64,000 bases of DNA from NCBI GenBank assembly GCA_023267375.1, contig JAHFNJ010000002.1:23634-87633 (forward strand), given 5' to 3'. Numbering within the stretch: position 1 is the stretch's first letter; each line of letters begins with the position of its first letter. This stretch comes from Candidatus Nomurabacteria bacterium (GTDB lineage: Bacteria > Patescibacteriota > Minisyncoccia > Phycocordibacterales > UBA9973). Positions 39,824 to 58,141 of the stretch are shown here, in pieces. The translations under genes and the position numbers were made by a program. The notes below the pieces were generated by a model that was not told the DNA's origin, ran no database searches, and saw only the letters and a list, made by a program, of their open reading frames with translations.

Positions 39824-41263
39824 ATGTTTTCTAAAAAAACTTTTATTATTGTCACTATATTCTTTATTACGGCAACTTTACTCACGCCACTCTTTTTAGT
39901 TTCGGCTGTTGACGAGGGGAGTGTTCCACCAGCAGATGATGGTTCGGGAAGCGTTACTCCTCCTGCGGATCCCAAAACAGTCGATCCTGTCCCGTCTGAC
40001 CCAGGTGGATCAGGATCGACTGACCCTACTCCCGCACCCATTGTTACTGATCCTGCTCCACCAGCCAGTGATCCGGTCCAACCAGCTCCTTCACCAAAGG
40101 AGACAAGTACTCCTCCCTCTACGCCAGTTTTTACTACTGGGGGATCGACACAGCCAACTATTGCTCCCGAGGTATCAACTGAAGACTTTTCTGCAGTTAA
40201 TCCTACGACTCAAAATCCAGACTCATCAAAAAATAATCTTGCGTTGATTATTGGGGCGCTCGCGCTTTTTGGTGGAGGAGTATTTGCATTTAAGGCGAAT
40301 CAGAAAAAGAATGATGGCCCATGCGATACAATAAAAACAAAGCTTGAGCAGAAGAAGACTGAATTGGCAAACGTTGATCAAAAACTTTCCCTGCAAGAGA
40401 TTGCTAAACAAAAATTGGCAGAAGAGATTGAGAATAAAAAAGAAAGTCTTAAAGAAAAAGCAATTACCAAAGTGAAAGATAAGACGCTCGAAAAGATAAA
40501 TAGTGAAATTCTCAAAAAGACTATTGAAAAAGCTGAGAAGGGGAAAGAACTATATGACACGCTGGTTGAAAAGAAAGATGAAGCCGAGAAGTTGATTGAA
40601 GTTTTAAAAGCAAAACGGCAAGGACTTTCAAGTGAAGTGCAGAAACTCGAATCGGAATATAAGGTGTGTGTGGCTGGCGTAACGAGTGCCTCAGTTGTTA
40701 AAAAAGGGGGAATAGTACTTCCGTTACTGGGAAGTATGCCAAAAAAAATCTATATCACGGGTGTTTCTGGAACAGGGAAATCTAGTATAGCTTTAAAACT
40801 AGCAGAAAAAGGAATTCCCTCAATTGATATAGATGAAATAAAAGATTTATGCAAATGGGTACACAAGGACACAAAAGAAATTACTCATTGGTATCCTGGG
40901 GTCGGCGGTCAGTTCTTTGAGTCCTATAAGTATATTTGTGATAAAGAAAAATTGATTAGTTTAATGGGAGAACATAAAAATGAAACTGTTGTAGTTGTAG
41001 GACTCGCAGATAATCAATCAGAATTTTTTGATTTATTTGATACGGTATTTCTATTTCAGTGTAAACCAGATGTTTTTTTGAAAAGAATTACCGATAGAAC
41101 AAATCATGATTTTGGAAAACATGATTCCGAAAAGAAAATGATTTTGGGTTGGTACAAGGATTTTGAAAAAGAAGTGTTAGAAAAGAAAGCAATCCCAATA
41201 GATACTGAAGCTCCACTTGAGAAAGTGCTCAAAGTTGTTATTTCTGAGATTGGAAAACTATGA
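39824..41263 (+). CDS. Single-pass membrane protein: signal peptide, Pro/Thr-rich extracellular region, TM helix, coiled coil and a cytoplasmic P-loop kinase-like (AAA_18/shikimate-kinase-like) domain
   Basis: The signal reads MFSKKTFIIVTIFFITATLLTPLFLVSA. The P/T/D/S-rich low-complexity stretch is about 110 aa. The TM helix is LALIIGALALFGGGVFAF. The Walker A motif is KIYITGVSGTGKSSIALKL, and a Walker B-like hhhhD motif is VVVVGLAD. Confidence 0.5.
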   Translation: MFSKKTFIIVTIFFITATLLTPLFLVSAVDEGSVPPADDGSGSVTPPADPKTVDPVPSDPGGSGSTDPTPAPIVTDPAPPASDPVQPAPSPKETSTPPSTPVFTTGGSTQPTIAPEVSTEDFSAVNPTTQNPDSSKNNLALIIGALALFGGGVFAFKANQKKNDGPCDTIKTKLEQKKTELANVDQKLSLQEIAKQKLAEEIENKKESLKEKAITKVKDKTLEKINSEILKKTIEKAEKGKELYDTLVEKKDEAEKLIEVLKAKRQGLSSEVQKLESEYKVCVAGVTSASVVKKGGIVLPLLGSMPKKIYITGVSGTGKSSIALKLAEKGIPSIDIDEIKDLCKWVHKDTKEITHWYPGVGGQFFESYKYICDKEKLISLMGEHKNETVVVVGLADNQSEFFDLFDTVFLFQCKPDVFLKRITDRTNHDFGKHDSEKKMILGWYKDFEKEVLEKKAIPIDTEAPLEKVLKVVISEIGKL

Positions 41264-41505
41264 CCTTTTTCATTTATATTCTCGAATGCGTTGACGCGAC
41301 ATTGTATGTCGGCTCTACGAATGATCTTGAAAAGAGAGTGCATGCGCATAATCACTTAAAGAGTGGTGCGCACTATACCAAAATTCGCCGGCCGGTGGTG
41401 TTGAAATATTCTGAAAAAGTACGAACGTATGCAAAAGCTCGAAGCAGGGAAGCAGAATTGAAGAGATTGAGTCGGGGAGAGAAACTCAAGTTAATAAAAA
41501 AATAA
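41260..41505 (+). CDS. Small GIY-YIG nuclease-superfamily protein (UPF0213/YhbQ-like)
   Basis: It reads IYILECVDATLYVGSTNDLEKRVHAHN...YTKIRRPVVLKY.E..R..A..RE...K, the GIY-YIG motifs. Its ATG overlaps the upstream stop (ATGA). Confidence 0.7.
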   Translation: MTFFIYILECVDATLYVGSTNDLEKRVHAHNHLKSGAHYTKIRRPVVLKYSEKVRTYAKARSREAELKRLSRGEKLKLIKK

Positions 41506-41508
41506 GGA

Positions 41509-42297
41509 CTATTCTTTATACGGTTTCGCAGTGCTCCATAATCCTTCAAAGAGTGCCGAGATAGTATCGTTGTGCTCCTTTGAGGTGACTAAAATCGCGT
41601 AGCAGTTCTCGTATGAAGAAATGTAGAGTGTTTTATCATCAAAGAGAAAGATGGTCGTTTTAAATTTTCCCTTCATGACGTCTGGGAGCATGCGAATTCT
41701 TGAAAACGTTGCGTAGTATTTTTTAAAATCGGATGGTTTTATTTTTGCTTCCCATAAATTGCGGGTAGTGATATTTCGCTGGCGACGCTCCTCCACATAC
41801 TTTCGGATGAATTCTTCACCGAATCCCCAGAAAAATGTATGTTCGGGTACGATCAGATCAACTTTTTTACTTTTTGCATACATCACATCCATTACGACAT
41901 GTTTTACCGCATCGACTCCTTCAAAAAAAGAGACCATTGGCTTTTCAATCTTTGATGCTGATGATGAAACCAGGCTTGGCAGAAGCTCGCCGATTTGTTC
42001 AGTGAGATTTACCGCTTCATCTTCTTTTTCGCGGGCGATAGCAACCAGGCGTTCAAAAGGGGAAAGGGTAAACGTAAAGTCCGACTGCTTGCCCGATTTT
42101 GAAACCAGCCCTCTCTTCTCAAGCGAGTTCAATGCATAGTAAATAGTCGGCCGTTTCATCTTGGTCGTCTTCATGAGATCGTGCGCAGTTCGAGCACCAG
42201 CCACCATGCGCAAGTAGACGGTGATTTCGGATTCCGTCAGTCCCAATTTTTGCAGTTGTTTCTCTGGTTGATTCATCCGGTTAGTGAGAAATGGCAT
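41509..42297 (-). CDS. TrmB-family transcriptional regulator
   Basis: The N-terminal wHTH reads LQKLGLTESEITVYLRMVAGARTAHDLMKTTKMKRPTIYYALNSLEKRGLV, followed by a C-terminal TrmB-type domain. The true start may be the second ATG at 42276 (see findings). Confidence 0.65.
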   Translation of the reverse strand: MPFLTNRMNQPEKQLQKLGLTESEITVYLRMVAGARTAHDLMKTTKMKRPTIYYALNSLEKRGLVSKSGKQSDFTFTLSPFERLVAIAREKEDEAVNLTEQIGELLPSLVSSSASKIEKPMVSFFEGVDAVKHVVMDVMYAKSKKVDLIVPEHTFFWGFGEEFIRKYVEERRQRNITTRNLWEAKIKPSDFKKYYATFSRIRMLPDVMKGKFKTTIFLFDDKTLYISSYENCYAILVTSKEHNDTISALFEGLWSTAKPYKE

Positions 42298-42513
42298 TAT
42301 TGGTTTTTGCCGTCTTTTATTAAGTTGTAATTAGTAATTATCATTTTGCAATATGTATATCTTCAACCAATGCCTCACTACCGCTCGGCGATGCCATTTT
42401 CTACTACGGGATTCATTTGTCTAATGGCTATTATACACTATTAAACAAAATGTCACAAGGGGGTAGAGTTGAGAAAACGTTATTTCACATTCTAATCCTT
42501 AAATATAAAGCTT

Positions 42514-57906: not shown

Positions 57907-58141
57907 GAGCAATCAAACACCTTCTGTAAGAAGCAAAAAATCACCTTATTCTATAAGGTGATTTTTTGTTGACGTTTTGCGACTTGTGTTTTGTAATGTT
58001 TCATGATATAATTGGGGCACCTTTATGAATCCGGTAGTAGACAATGGCATTGCCGAGTGATAGCGAGGTATTGGTAGAAAATATTTATTTTGCAAATTAT
58101 GAACACTAATTATCATATAAAGAAAACGGCAGAAACCAATA

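Follow-up and report, generated by a model that had tools for sequence, protein, structure and literature searches.

A probable MITE-like mobile element at the start codons of unrelated genes in a Nomurabacteria genome

Introduction

Several bacterial MITEs are co-transcribed with their neighbours, among them the Correia elements of Neisseria, the enterobacterial ERIC, and the pneumococcal RUP. They share many traits with the element described here: a length of about 100-150 bp, the lack of an ORF, terminal inverted repeats that give the transcript a long hairpin, short direct repeats, a presence at many unrelated loci, empty sites, and a division into sub-families. They differ from it in that they are scattered in intergenic regions, in both orientations, and use simple targets such as TA, whereas the present element occupies a 5-bp RTGRR target that coincides with a start codon at about 20 out of 20 sites, always in the same orientation, and resides in a CPR host. 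The palindromic elements of Rickettsia (RPE; Ogata et al. 2000) reportedly lie in frame inside coding regions and are translated with the protein. Like our element, they are palindromic sequences of about 100-150 bp that are mobile, are tolerated at essential genes of a reduced genome, and can add residues to a protein. Our element differs in its position, because all its copies lie at the first codon and not inside an ORF with the frame preserved, in its length, which is not constrained to multiples of three, and in the regeneration of the native start codon downstream.

Members of the IS492/IS110 family carry a 5-bp target on both sides, form circular junctions, and have a fixed orientation, and those of the IS110/IS621 type also encode a bridge RNA. 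The short asymmetric target present as a direct repeat, the fixed orientation, and a repeat type that is seemingly inherited with the lineage are common to them and to our element. However, IS110-family elements are 1.2-1.5 kb long, carry the gene for a DEDD recombinase, and mostly have no terminal inverted repeats, and we saw neither a recombinase nor guide-like complementarity to the target flanks in the element. Non-autonomous hairpin repeats of the REPIN/RAYT system and the PATEs derived from IS200/IS605 have a conserved GTAG-containing foot, as does the element, and in all of them a strand-specific biology is plausible. They have no flanking duplication and insert beside, not within, a tetra- or pentanucleotide; in the element, by contrast, a 5-mer is duplicated on both sides with the two copies varying together, the arms pair mutually, and the orientation follows the gene and not the direction of replication. 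Finally, hairpin inserts that are bypassed by the ribosome are known in gene 60 of phage T4 and as the 'byps' of Magnusiomyces mitochondria. They offer a functional analogy only: a mobile hairpin, identical short flanks resulting from insertion, and a gene that still works. These inserts have 27-55 nt, lie inside ORFs, and rely on take-off and landing codons and a stop, whereas the element has about 130 nt, lies at the initiation codon, and lacks an adjacent stop. The genomes of CPR bacteria (Patescibacteria) are small and generally thought to be poor in transposable elements.

Results

Two copies of one block precede unrelated genes

We analysed a stretch of 64,000 nt from a Candidatus Nomurabacteria genome, hereafter the window. 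An earlier note on this DNA had described a module of about 80 bp shared by the 5' ends of two unrelated genes, one encoding a TrmB-like regulator and the other a CAP/SCP-domain protein. The 80-nt string that it quoted is present (reverse complement of 42272-42351) and matches the region upstream of the CAP gene. The module is real, but its true length is about 143-145 nt per copy, the 5' 60 nt (85% identical between the window copies) having been missed (Table 1). Similarly, the two mismatches that had been placed in the final 48 nt exist, but they fall within the last 42 nt. The 3' 34-mer of the block occurs exactly twice in the window, with 0 occurrences expected from 100 shuffles, and nhmmer found just these two copies (E about 1e-51), which lie on opposite strands, 16 kb apart. 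There were no further copies in the ~10 kb of the same genome past the window ends. Copy 2 is also present in an independent assembly (L100).

Within each block, an element proper (81% identical between the copies overall and 76% in the interior) lies between the promoter of the gene (with a -10 box at 58007-58012 in the case of copy 2) and its native start codon. It is flanked by the 5-bp repeat ATGAA, one occurrence of which stands behind the promoter and the other on the coding sequence. In copy 1, the 3' arm of the element includes a TAA located 4 nt upstream of the native ATG, in a different frame.

Table 1. Positions of the two element copies, of the genes that carry them, and of the putative operator in the window
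Feature	Position	Strand	Remarks
Promoter/putative operator palindrome	42418..42437	-	TGTATAAT-agcc-ATTAGACA; outside the element; spans the -10 box 42435-42430
Shared block, copy 1	42416..42272	-	runs from ATGAATCC to CCGGATGAA
Left ATGAA, copy 1	42412..42416	-	ancestral start-codon position, 13 nt past the -10 box
uORF opened by the left ATGAA, copy 1	42416..42378	-	12 codons, MNPVVENGIAER*
Element proper, copy 1	42277..42411	-	135 nt, TCCCGTAGTAGAAAATGGCAT ... AATGCCATTTCTCACTAACCGG; family HMM E 9e-20
5' arm (terminal inverted repeat), copy 1	42391..42411	-	pairs with the 3' arm in MFE and centroid folds
3' arm, copy 1	42277..42298	-	holds the internal ATG 42297-42295, in frame with the native start
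Right ATGAA, copy 1	42272..42276	-	42276-42274 is the native TrmB-like start codon
TrmB-like gene, native CDS	41509-42276	-	
Shared block, copy 2	58025..58167	+	runs from ATGAATCC to CCGGATGAA
Left ATGAA, copy 2	58025..58029	+	opens the uORF MNPVVDNGIAE* (58025-58060)
Element proper, copy 2	58030..58162	+	133 nt; HMM E 1e-20; sequence and fold
5' arm, copy 2	58030-58050	+	
3' arm, copy 2	58141-58162	+	internal in-frame ATG 58142-58144
Right ATGAA, copy 2	58163..58167	+	58163-58165 is the native CAP-domain start codon
CAP-domain gene, native CDS	58163-59212	+	

The sites are empty in orthologues, which start at the second ATG

The annotated first ATG of both genes and the codons for MPF[LF]TNRM lie inside the block, as had been noted, and the suggestion that translation natively starts at the second ATG is borne out by homologues of both proteins. 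Of the 80 N-termini of TrmB homologues that we inspected, about 75 begin at the counterpart of the second ATG, reading M[NQT][EQ]P..., and most of these proteins have 252-258 aa; the Pfam TrmB domain begins at residue 15 of the long ORF. The CAP homologues begin with MK[LP]..ALKHYF or similar, again at the second ATG, the closest ones reading MKLKEALRHYF and MKLHHALKHYF. The peptide MPF[LF]TNR is confined to the window's own proteins, in agreement with the view that the block is not native coding sequence. Since nearly all orthologues start at the second ATG, we regard this peptide as a read-through from the ATG inside the element.

The block itself is also missing from related loci. A search with nhmmer, using a profile of the two copies, did not find it upstream of 75 loci of TrmB orthologues or paralogues, and there is no copy of the element in about 750 kb of orthologue loci. 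The TrmB orthologues are up to 84% identical, and the site of copy 1 is empty in L002, L004, L005, and L096; that of copy 2 is empty in two syntenic CAP orthologues (L097 and L098), where the sequence reads ...GATATAAT-N15-ATGAAATTG. The TrmB and syntenic CAP orthologues keep the promoters, which are followed directly by one ATGAA start. Alleles with an empty site, in which the native ATG would be the annotated start of the very same TrmB or CAP protein, are not on record. An insertion-free junction in the window would join the promoter straight to ATGAATCAACC or ATGAAGCCTCA, and the circular junction would read ..AACCGG-ATGAA-TCCGG...

A family of elements at the start codons of unrelated genes

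The earlier note had proposed a search for more copies, and such a search was fruitful. We scanned metagenomes without flanks, using the 3' arm as the sole query, and obtained 20 loci, all with a complete element. Together with the window pair, this makes 24 copies (22 more than in the window), at about 20 independent sites. All 24 lie at the start codon of a gene, in a target of the form RTGRR, and all point the same way with respect to that gene. The flanking 5-mers on the left and on the right are identical in 20 of the 22 full copies; they are of the types ATGAA, ATGGA, ATGAG, and GTGGA, and both sides vary together. Besides the two window genes, about 18 unrelated genes of other genomes carry the element at their start codon. 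The downstream genes encode L22, L2, a class II aldolase, TsaE, PilC, PilB, DnaE, an RNase J-like protein, GltX, an M50 protease, a PAP2 protein, DnaG, and a DksA-like protein, and the Pfam domains of the downstream ORFs begin at residues 1-10 in most cases.

Copies at different genes can be very similar, with up to 93% identity in the interior. Two sub-families occur on a single contig (L078 and L087), and one start codon carries a tandem pair of elements (L076). In the variant L076b, the 3' arm has an in-frame TGA where the others have an in-frame ATG, and L090 has an intact gene but a decayed left ATG. Paceibacteria-type CPR bacteria are the native hosts of the element.

The absence from orthologues, the recurrence at unrelated start codons, and the 5-nt direct repeats are hallmarks of mobile insertions, whereas an operator would not show them. 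In the window, the TrmB-like gene and the CAP gene have thus each received an independent insertion at the start codon. The element stays below the upper size of MITEs, about 300-500 bp, is non-coding, has conserved terminal inverted repeats and varying flanking direct repeats, and occupies many unrelated loci that are empty in relatives, as expected for MITEs, and we conclude that it is very probably a non-autonomous MITE-like mobile element. MITEs mobilised by DDE enzymes typically insert in either orientation, whereas the 24 copies all have the same one, and for this reason we consider the element a variant of MITEs and not a plain member.

In the 1.04 Mb of loci that we collected, there was no autonomous parent, no transposase with the same termini, and no solo or widely spaced arms; a family profile run over the same loci revealed no extra or diverged copies. 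A scan of viral contigs with the 5' arm gave 0 matches, and blastn against annotated plasmids and phages gave one chance match of 41 nt and nothing else. The searchable literature on MITEs, palindromic repeats, and start codons and on CPR, Patescibacteria, or Parcubacteria holds no description of such an element that we could find, and the family is apparently undescribed.

Architecture and folding

The element has 122-137 nt. Its outer termini are fixed, reading (T/C)CC(G/C)GTAGTAGA ... TCTCA(C/T)TAACCGG, and are followed inwards by an inner helix, in most cases AAATGGCAT/ATGCCATTT. The interior varies between copies, is AT-rich, and has just short, non-conserved ORFs of 9-46 codons, with no capacity for a transposase. 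The terminal arms, of about 21-22 nt, pair with each other and do not form separate subterminal hairpins. They give a helix of 19 bp that is 98.8% paired across 22 copies, in which the outer 11 bp are invariant and five pairs show double changes, all within the inner helix. The fold has conserved bulges. The sense and antisense strands have similar folding energies (-33.5 vs. -32.8 kcal/mol), as expected for an inverted repeat in DNA, which leaves a strand-specific RNA structure unsupported. A box AAATGG[CT] is frequent about 12 nt upstream of the 3' arm (in L082b it reads AAATGAT, and the arm ATGTCATTT); in sub-family B, it does not match the 3' arm. Promoter-like hexamers occur inside both window copies at non-homologous positions, and we discarded the idea of an internal outward promoter.

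Targets, orientation, and mode of movement

The restriction of the element to start codons goes beyond what its target sequence predicts. The window contains 532 sites of the form ATG[AA/GA/AG], of which 20 are crude gene starts and 60 are intergenic. That about 20 out of 20 independent sites should all be starts is an outcome with a probability of the order of 1e-12, even if all insertions within genes were purged. A target sequence combined with such purging thus fails to explain the lack of intergenic copies away from starts. The flanks of the targets show no conserved recombinase-binding arms or guide-complementary positions.

The type of the repeat tracks the sub-family: it is GA, GA, AG, and GA in type A, and AA at all four sites of type B. 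This association holds even on one contig, although it is post hoc and concerns a small sample (Fisher p about 0.014). It suggests a core carried along from the donor site, which a simple duplication by staggered cuts does not predict.

How the element may move can be outlined from these features. An enzyme supplied in trans would recognise the fixed 11-bp termini and would either make a 5-bp staggered cut or recombine via the 5-bp core. A hairpin or cruciform form may matter for the element, since compensatory changes keep the inner helix. DDE transposases normally insert in either orientation, and an asymmetric 5-bp target with a strict orientation is unusual for them.

A variant that keeps mobility itself, and which we regard as possible though on the unlikely side, replaces DDE cut-and-paste by an oriented site-specific recombination via the 5-bp core (of the IS492/IS110 type or the tyrosine-recombinase type) or by the movement of a single-stranded hairpin. 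The apparent duplication would then be the shared core of the donor junction and the target and not a repaired staggered cut. The strict orientation of the 24 copies, the asymmetry of the target, and the repeat types that follow the sub-families even within one contig are all consistent with this. Moreover, the joined ends would read ..TCACTAACCGG-ATGRR-TCCGGTAGTAGA.., i.e., inverted 11-bp sites around an asymmetric 5-bp spacer, much like the core site of a recombinase, and the compensatory changes, like the conserved bulges, suggest a folded strand. Yet the target flanks lack the binding arms or guide-complementary positions mentioned above, one copy of sub-family A has AG in place of GA, no recombinase is linked to the element, and the association between repeat type and sub-family has the limits of a small sample analysed a posteriori.

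Is the element a regulatory RNA?

The element could also be primarily a cis-regulatory RNA (a riboswitch-like or protein-binding leader, an RNA thermometer, or an RNase III site) that was spread or retained for regulation, with mobility being secondary, as in a domesticated module. It invariably occupies the 5' end of a gene and its transcribed strand, an ATG lies within its closing helix, which borders on the native one, compensatory changes preserve the pairing of the inner helix, and pairing between the AAATGG[CT] box and the 3' arm could replace the long-range helix. Such a function would also account for the exclusive location at start codons, which is otherwise unexplained. However, riboswitches and leaders are recognised by their orthologous positions at related genes, by a multi-helix covarying core, and by membership in a curated family, and the element departs from this pattern throughout. 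The downstream genes are functionally incoherent, and orthologous sites lack the element. There is much variation in the interior, which has no conserved loops or junctions that could make a ligand pocket, the closing helix alone being conserved, and the outer helix is conserved as sequence and not as structure alone. Both strands fold equally well, and the AAATGG[CT] box mismatches the 3' arm in sub-family B. Rfam has no family at either copy, be it at the gathering thresholds over the whole window or at E<=5 for copy 2; the only match, snoR10, was put down to chance. We therefore consider a primarily regulatory RNA improbable, and retain the mobile element as the explanation.

The TrmB-like regulator has another candidate operator

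The earlier note had interpreted the block as a shared promoter, leader, or operator, possibly the site of the TrmB-family regulator itself, present also at a member of its regulon, the CAP gene. The two copies ahead of two genes of one genome, one of which encodes a transcription factor, and the inverted repeat within the block lend themselves to this reading, which the comparative data nevertheless make very improbable. The block lies downstream of both -10 boxes. It is missing from every orthologous TrmB promoter, including that of the gene for the 84%-identical protein, even though the regulator is conserved, and it is missing in the syntenic CAP orthologues. Other genomes carry it, together with direct repeats, at about 18 more genes, all unrelated.

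A different palindrome shows what is expected of an operator, namely conservation in the promoters of orthologues and a location at promoter elements, in contrast to the block. It has an 8-4-8 structure, TGTATAAT-N4-ATTA[GT]ACA (TGTATAAT-N4-ATTATACA), and is conserved in about 30 orthologue promoters. A scan of the promoter of the TrmB-like gene gave TTGTGA-17-TATAAT, and the palindrome overlaps its -10 box. It occurs a single time in the window and is missing at the CAP gene. Judging from the sequence, it is probably the autoregulatory operator of the TrmB-like regulator.

Expression and translation of the carrying genes

SD-like motifs precede only five of 57 crude genes, and -10-like boxes peak 6-7 nt upstream of start codons. 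At no fewer than seven element sites, i.e., at least seven, a -10 box lies 6-8 nt upstream of the left ATG. We found no account of SD or leaderless usage in Patescibacteria in the searchable literature. Transcribed along with the gene, the element would form a new 5' leader of about 140 nt, closed by the 19-bp helix, which would hold the internal ATG and abut the native one. Expression could survive this in several ways. First, no spacing between SD and ATG would be broken, because the host hardly uses SD motifs and has many starts of the leaderless type. Second, the duplicated start codon would keep the original initiation context, and ribosomes starting there would translate through the open 5' arm (M-x-PVVENGI...), which should open the helix so that the 3' arm becomes accessible. 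Third, the 3' arm would provide an A-rich in-frame ATG (MPFxTNR-M...). This arm would also offer a TAA at a distance of 4 nt from the native ATG, on its upstream side, and in many cases a TGA that overlaps this ATG, placing stops or an in-frame ATG within 21 nt, and (re-)initiation at or near the native start may therefore be possible. None of these routes is universal, since the uORF stops after 9-31 codons, far from the native ATG, in most copies, the left ATG of L090 has decayed, and L076b lacks the in-frame ATG.

Two other routes were rejected. A frame-dependent read-through or bypass does not fit the element length plus 5, which is not constant modulo 3. RNA splicing or a BHB-type intron seems excluded as well, because the flanks are unrelated and cannot form the exon helices needed. 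MPF[LF]TNR might instead be a real N-terminus with a role of its own, for instance in targeting or regulation. In the main family, the ATG of the 3' arm invariably shares the frame of the native ATG; the sequence before it is A-rich (..AAATA ATG..), which could favour SD-independent initiation, and gene callers use it, but the peptide is missing in the orthologues of both proteins (the opposite of the conserved translated N-terminus that would have spoken against the earlier note), its nucleotides are invariant with no synonymous variation, the same seven codons precede unrelated proteins from ribosomal ones to DnaE within an inverted repeat, and L076b has an in-frame TGA there, all of which makes a functional tag hardly credible.

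Discussion

A family that occupies, in a fixed orientation, the start codons of essential genes such as those for L2, L22, DnaE, DnaG, and GltX implies either an unusual, oriented recognition of the target or an unusually strong functional filter. Beyond the mobility of the element, one may tentatively envisage, as a conjecture that we would not put forward as the probable one, that it is directed to start codons by a directional reading of RTGRR (as a core, or as an unwound or single strand at leaderless starts) and has an architecture that is neutral for expression. If true, we would be dealing with a transposon that has adapted to life on the first codon of essential genes, in CPR genomes that are poor in SD motifs and rich in leaderless starts, and with a natural, portable device for translational coupling. 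The insertions provide a natural experiment on the way in which the ribosomes of SD-poor hosts reach a start codon that a hairpin of about -33 kcal/mol precedes.

There are also practical consequences for genome annotation. Gene callers extend the affected proteins by MPF[LF]TNR, as happened with both proteins of the window, and the repeat can pass for a regulatory motif or a shared signal. In the case of the TrmB-like regulator, the probable operator is placed elsewhere, in the palindrome over the -10 box.

Two insertions at native start codons

The block at the start of the TrmB-like regulator gene (copy 1) and that at the start of the CAP/SCP-domain gene (copy 2) are very probably mobile insertions. 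The promoters of TrmB orthologues, including that of the 84%-identical L096, read ...tgtttaatagtgTATAATaacNATTAGACAAAT, followed immediately by ATGAAxCAxCC. The window gene has kept both this promoter and ATGAATCAACCAGAG, with 140 nt between them. Syntenic CAP orthologues, which lie between an upstream gene for a surface protein and a downstream one for an HhH-GPD glycosylase, read ...catGATATAATt-N15 and then contain only one ATGAAATTG. In both window copies, ATGAA is found on each side of the inserted DNA. The element sequence is absent from all 75 TrmB-orthologue/paralogue loci (~750 kb).

The similarity between the two regions was confirmed by alignment and is longer than the earlier note gave. 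It ends abruptly at both edges of each copy, with 81% identity over the element proper (the hairpin-forming insert between two 5-nt repeats) and 76% over its interior. The 3' 34-mer of the block occurs in the window only in these two copies (0 expected from shuffles), and a profile search of the window revealed no third one. Since both blocks begin 12-13 nt past a TATAAT box, they are best read as transcribed leaders, not promoters.

The homologues' N-termini bear out the earlier note's reading that translation natively starts at the second ATG. Among the TrmB homologues inspected, ~75/80 start with M[NQT][EQ]P... (mostly 252-258 aa), and CAP-domain homologues start with MK[LP]..ALKHYF or similar; both match the second ATG of the corresponding window gene. 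Of the proteins inspected, the window pair alone carried MPF[LF]TNR, which supports the view that this peptide is not native.

Coordinates of the element copies and of associated features (window positions unless a locus is given)
Feature	Position	Strand	Sequence or remark
Copy 1 block	42416..42272	minus	from ATGAATCC to CCGGATGAA
Copy 2 block	58025..58167	plus	motif boundaries as in copy 1
8-4-8 palindrome	42418-42437	minus	TGTATAAT-N4-ATTA[GT]ACA; intact, upstream of insertion
Second ATG, TrmB-like gene	42276-42274		
Second ATG, CAP gene	58163-58165		
uORF, copy 1	42416-42378		MNPVVENGIAER, stop
uORF, copy 2	58025-58060		MNPVVDNGIAE, stop
Small ORF, copy 1	42324-42371	minus	MIITNYNLIKDGKNQ, stop; ends in TAATG overlapping internal in-frame ATG
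Small ORF, copy 2	58097-58156	plus	MNTNYHIKKTAETNNAIFH, stop; ends at TAA 4 nt before native ATG
Box before 3' arm, copy 2	58126-58131		
Tandem pair at one start codon	L076:257-530		ATGGA-el1-GTGGA-el2-GTGGA, then M50 protease gene
32-nt mini-hairpin	L078:10039-10070	plus	CCCAGTAGTAGAGCAAAGCTCACTACGGG[AG]CAGG
32-nt mini-hairpin	L082:7085-7116	reverse complement	identical to that in L078
Different insertion at a TrmB orthologue	L001:5940-6015		~30 nt, agctaaaaaccagcagtttgcaacaaaacat; upstream of protein P0003
GIY-YIG nuclease-domain gene	41260-41505	plus	81 aa, stand-alone
LOOT RNA	3250-3368	minus	Rfam RF03000, 78 bits
Large serine recombinase gene	3535-4854		adjoins LOOT RNA
Neighbours of LOOT RNA	2121-4854 and past window start (L099)		

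The likely operator lies outside the block

The earlier note had suggested that the block might be an operator of the TrmB-family regulator shared with a member of its regulon. The promoters of TrmB orthologues (L002-L034, L096), whose proteins are 44-84% identical, have in common an 8-4-8 palindrome immediately upstream of the gene; the -10 box falls within it, and its end is usually 3 nt short of the ATG. It is this palindrome rather than the block that probably serves the TrmB-like family as its autoregulatory operator, and the transcript is probably leaderless or has a very short leader. The palindrome has no other occurrence in the window and none at the CAP gene, for which we found no link to the regulator, so the shared-operator reading is not borne out.

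The spot between the palindrome and the start codon holds a different insertion in L001, which creates another spurious N-terminal extension (MIRQTAENQQFATKH), and 15-30 extra nt in L012, L019, L021-L025, and L031. The position thus seems insertion-prone.

A family of hairpin elements

We scanned metagenome contigs with the 3' arm alone (AATGCCATTTNTCACTAACCGG), leaving the flanks unspecified, and obtained 20 loci. Every match with enough sequence contained the whole element, i.e., (T)CCGGTAGTAGAAAATGGCAT, ~90 nt of AT-rich variable interior, and AATGCCATTTYTCACTAACCGG, over 122-135 nt. A mismatch-tolerant arm search gave a second copy in L082; a tandem variant in L076 came to light through a query of the outer termini alone and through direct reading. 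The total is 24 copies at ~20 independent sites, with three pairs of orthologous sites (L076a/L087, L077/L088, L089/L095). Interiors are up to 93% identical between copies at different genes, and the two sub-families occur together on one contig (L078 + L087). The second element of the L076 tandem has unchanged outer termini and a wholly different yet complementary inner helix, and lacks the in-frame ATG. This tandem shows that a filled site can be hit again and that the target may be a GTG start.

The closing helix was the only structure found by RNAalifold. In the 22 full copies, its 19 bp are 98.8% paired, and the outer 11 bp and three conserved bulges are invariant in sequence. Double changes affect five pairs of the inner helix only and come from L082b (GAC/GTC) and L076b (ATTTCAAATT/AATTTGAAAT). 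Either strand folds equally well (sense -33.5, antisense -32.8 kcal/mol), and no Rfam family matches the element. Many copies carry a box, AAATGG[CT] or ACGGCA, ~12 nt before the 3' arm ('GAAATGGCTAAC' in L077). Being a repeat of the inner 5' arm, it offers GCCATTT a possible local pairing partner, as an alternative to the long-range helix. In L082b the box is AAATGAT, in agreement with the altered arms of this copy; the pattern does not fit sub-family B.

The identical 32-nt mini-hairpins of L078 and L082, contigs from different samples, have GTAGTAGA and TCACTAC in common with the outer stem of the element. That of L078 lengthens the ORF of the L29 gene at its 3' end rather than occupying a start codon. 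The hairpin may represent a related mini-element or else a footprint.

Targets and orientation

The left and right 5-mers are identical in 20 of the 22 full copies. The repeats are ATGAA (13), ATGGA (6, the L076 tandem being ATGGA/GTGGA/GTGGA), and ATGAG (2), with truncated L092 and L093 each scored by the right-hand 5-mer. On the left the sixth base is always the T of the element; on the right it is free. The right-hand ATG begins a real gene every time: ribosomal proteins L22 and L2, class II aldolase, TsaE, PilC, PilB, DnaE, RNase J-like, GltX, M50 protease, PAP2, DnaG, and DksA-like proteins. Most of their Pfam domains start at residues 1-10.

This apparent start-codon habit is striking. 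The window has 532 ATG[AA/GA/AG] sites (20 at crude gene starts, 60 intergenic, 452 within genes), and the 5-mer is present at just ~35% of its gene starts. By rough calculations, finding 20/20 independent sites at starts has p ~1e-12, even if all in-gene insertions were lethal, 20/20 RR targets p ~1e-9, and 20/20 copies in the same orientation p ~1e-6. The orientation relative to the gene is one and the same in 24/24 copies. The window copies, 16 kb from each other, lie on different strands, so orientation follows the gene, not the direction of replication.

Translation of the affected genes

In both window genes the left ATGAA retains the ancestral initiation context, and opens a short uORF that runs through the 5' arm. 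In the 3' arm, one ATG shares the frame of the native start and gives rise to the annotated MPF[LF]TNR; a TAA stands 4 nt ahead of the native ATG in the second frame, and, where the repeat is ATGA[AG], a TGA overlaps it in the third. The host uses Shine-Dalgarno sequences rarely (SD-like motifs before 5/57 crude genes of the whole window). Hexamers like the -10 box peak at 6-7 nt ahead of start codons (8/57 crude genes), which suggests that leaderless mRNAs are frequent in this Paceibacteria-type organism. At least 7 element sites outside the window have a -10 box 6-8 nt ahead of the left ATG, and so are leaderless-type starts. Ribosomes loaded at the old start would melt the helix, so that translation could begin, or begin anew, at either the internal ATG or the native one. 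Most uORFs end early, the left ATG is lost in L090, and the in-frame ATG is absent from L076b, which argues against any single translation route. The small ORFs of copies 1 and 2 could be relay ORFs for re-initiation or chance occurrences in AT-rich sequence.

Comparison with known elements

The element belongs with the bacterial MITEs, of which Correia, ERIC, and RUP are examples, by its size, its inverted-repeat ends and flanking repeats, its distribution over many loci, and the empty sites. Unlike these, it has a 5-bp RTGRR target that is a start codon every time, is strictly oriented, and has no known parent, no autonomous one being seen in 1.04 Mb of loci, viral contigs, and plasmid and phage records. 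Repeat type is associated with sub-family (GA, GA, AG, GA for type A; AA at all 4 sites for type B; Fisher p ~0.014, post hoc). The fixed orientation, asymmetric target, and this association recall the IS492/IS110-type or tyrosine-recombinase sites with a short common core, and also single-strand hairpin substrates, suggesting that in these features the element may be closer to one of these systems. RPE-, PATE-, and REPIN-type elements were rejected because their defining features were lacking. The searchable literature yielded no description of such an element, and this small mobile hairpin appears to be undescribed so far.

Other observations in the window

The GIY-YIG gene is convergent with and directly downstream of the TrmB-like gene; we found no link between it and the element. 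The LOOT RNA has as neighbours an ADP-ribosylating-toxin-domain protein, T5orf172/MUG113 and bPH_2 proteins, an N6/N4 methyltransferase, and an AbiV-HEPN protein. With this gene content and the serine recombinase, the region resembles an integrated mobile/defence island.
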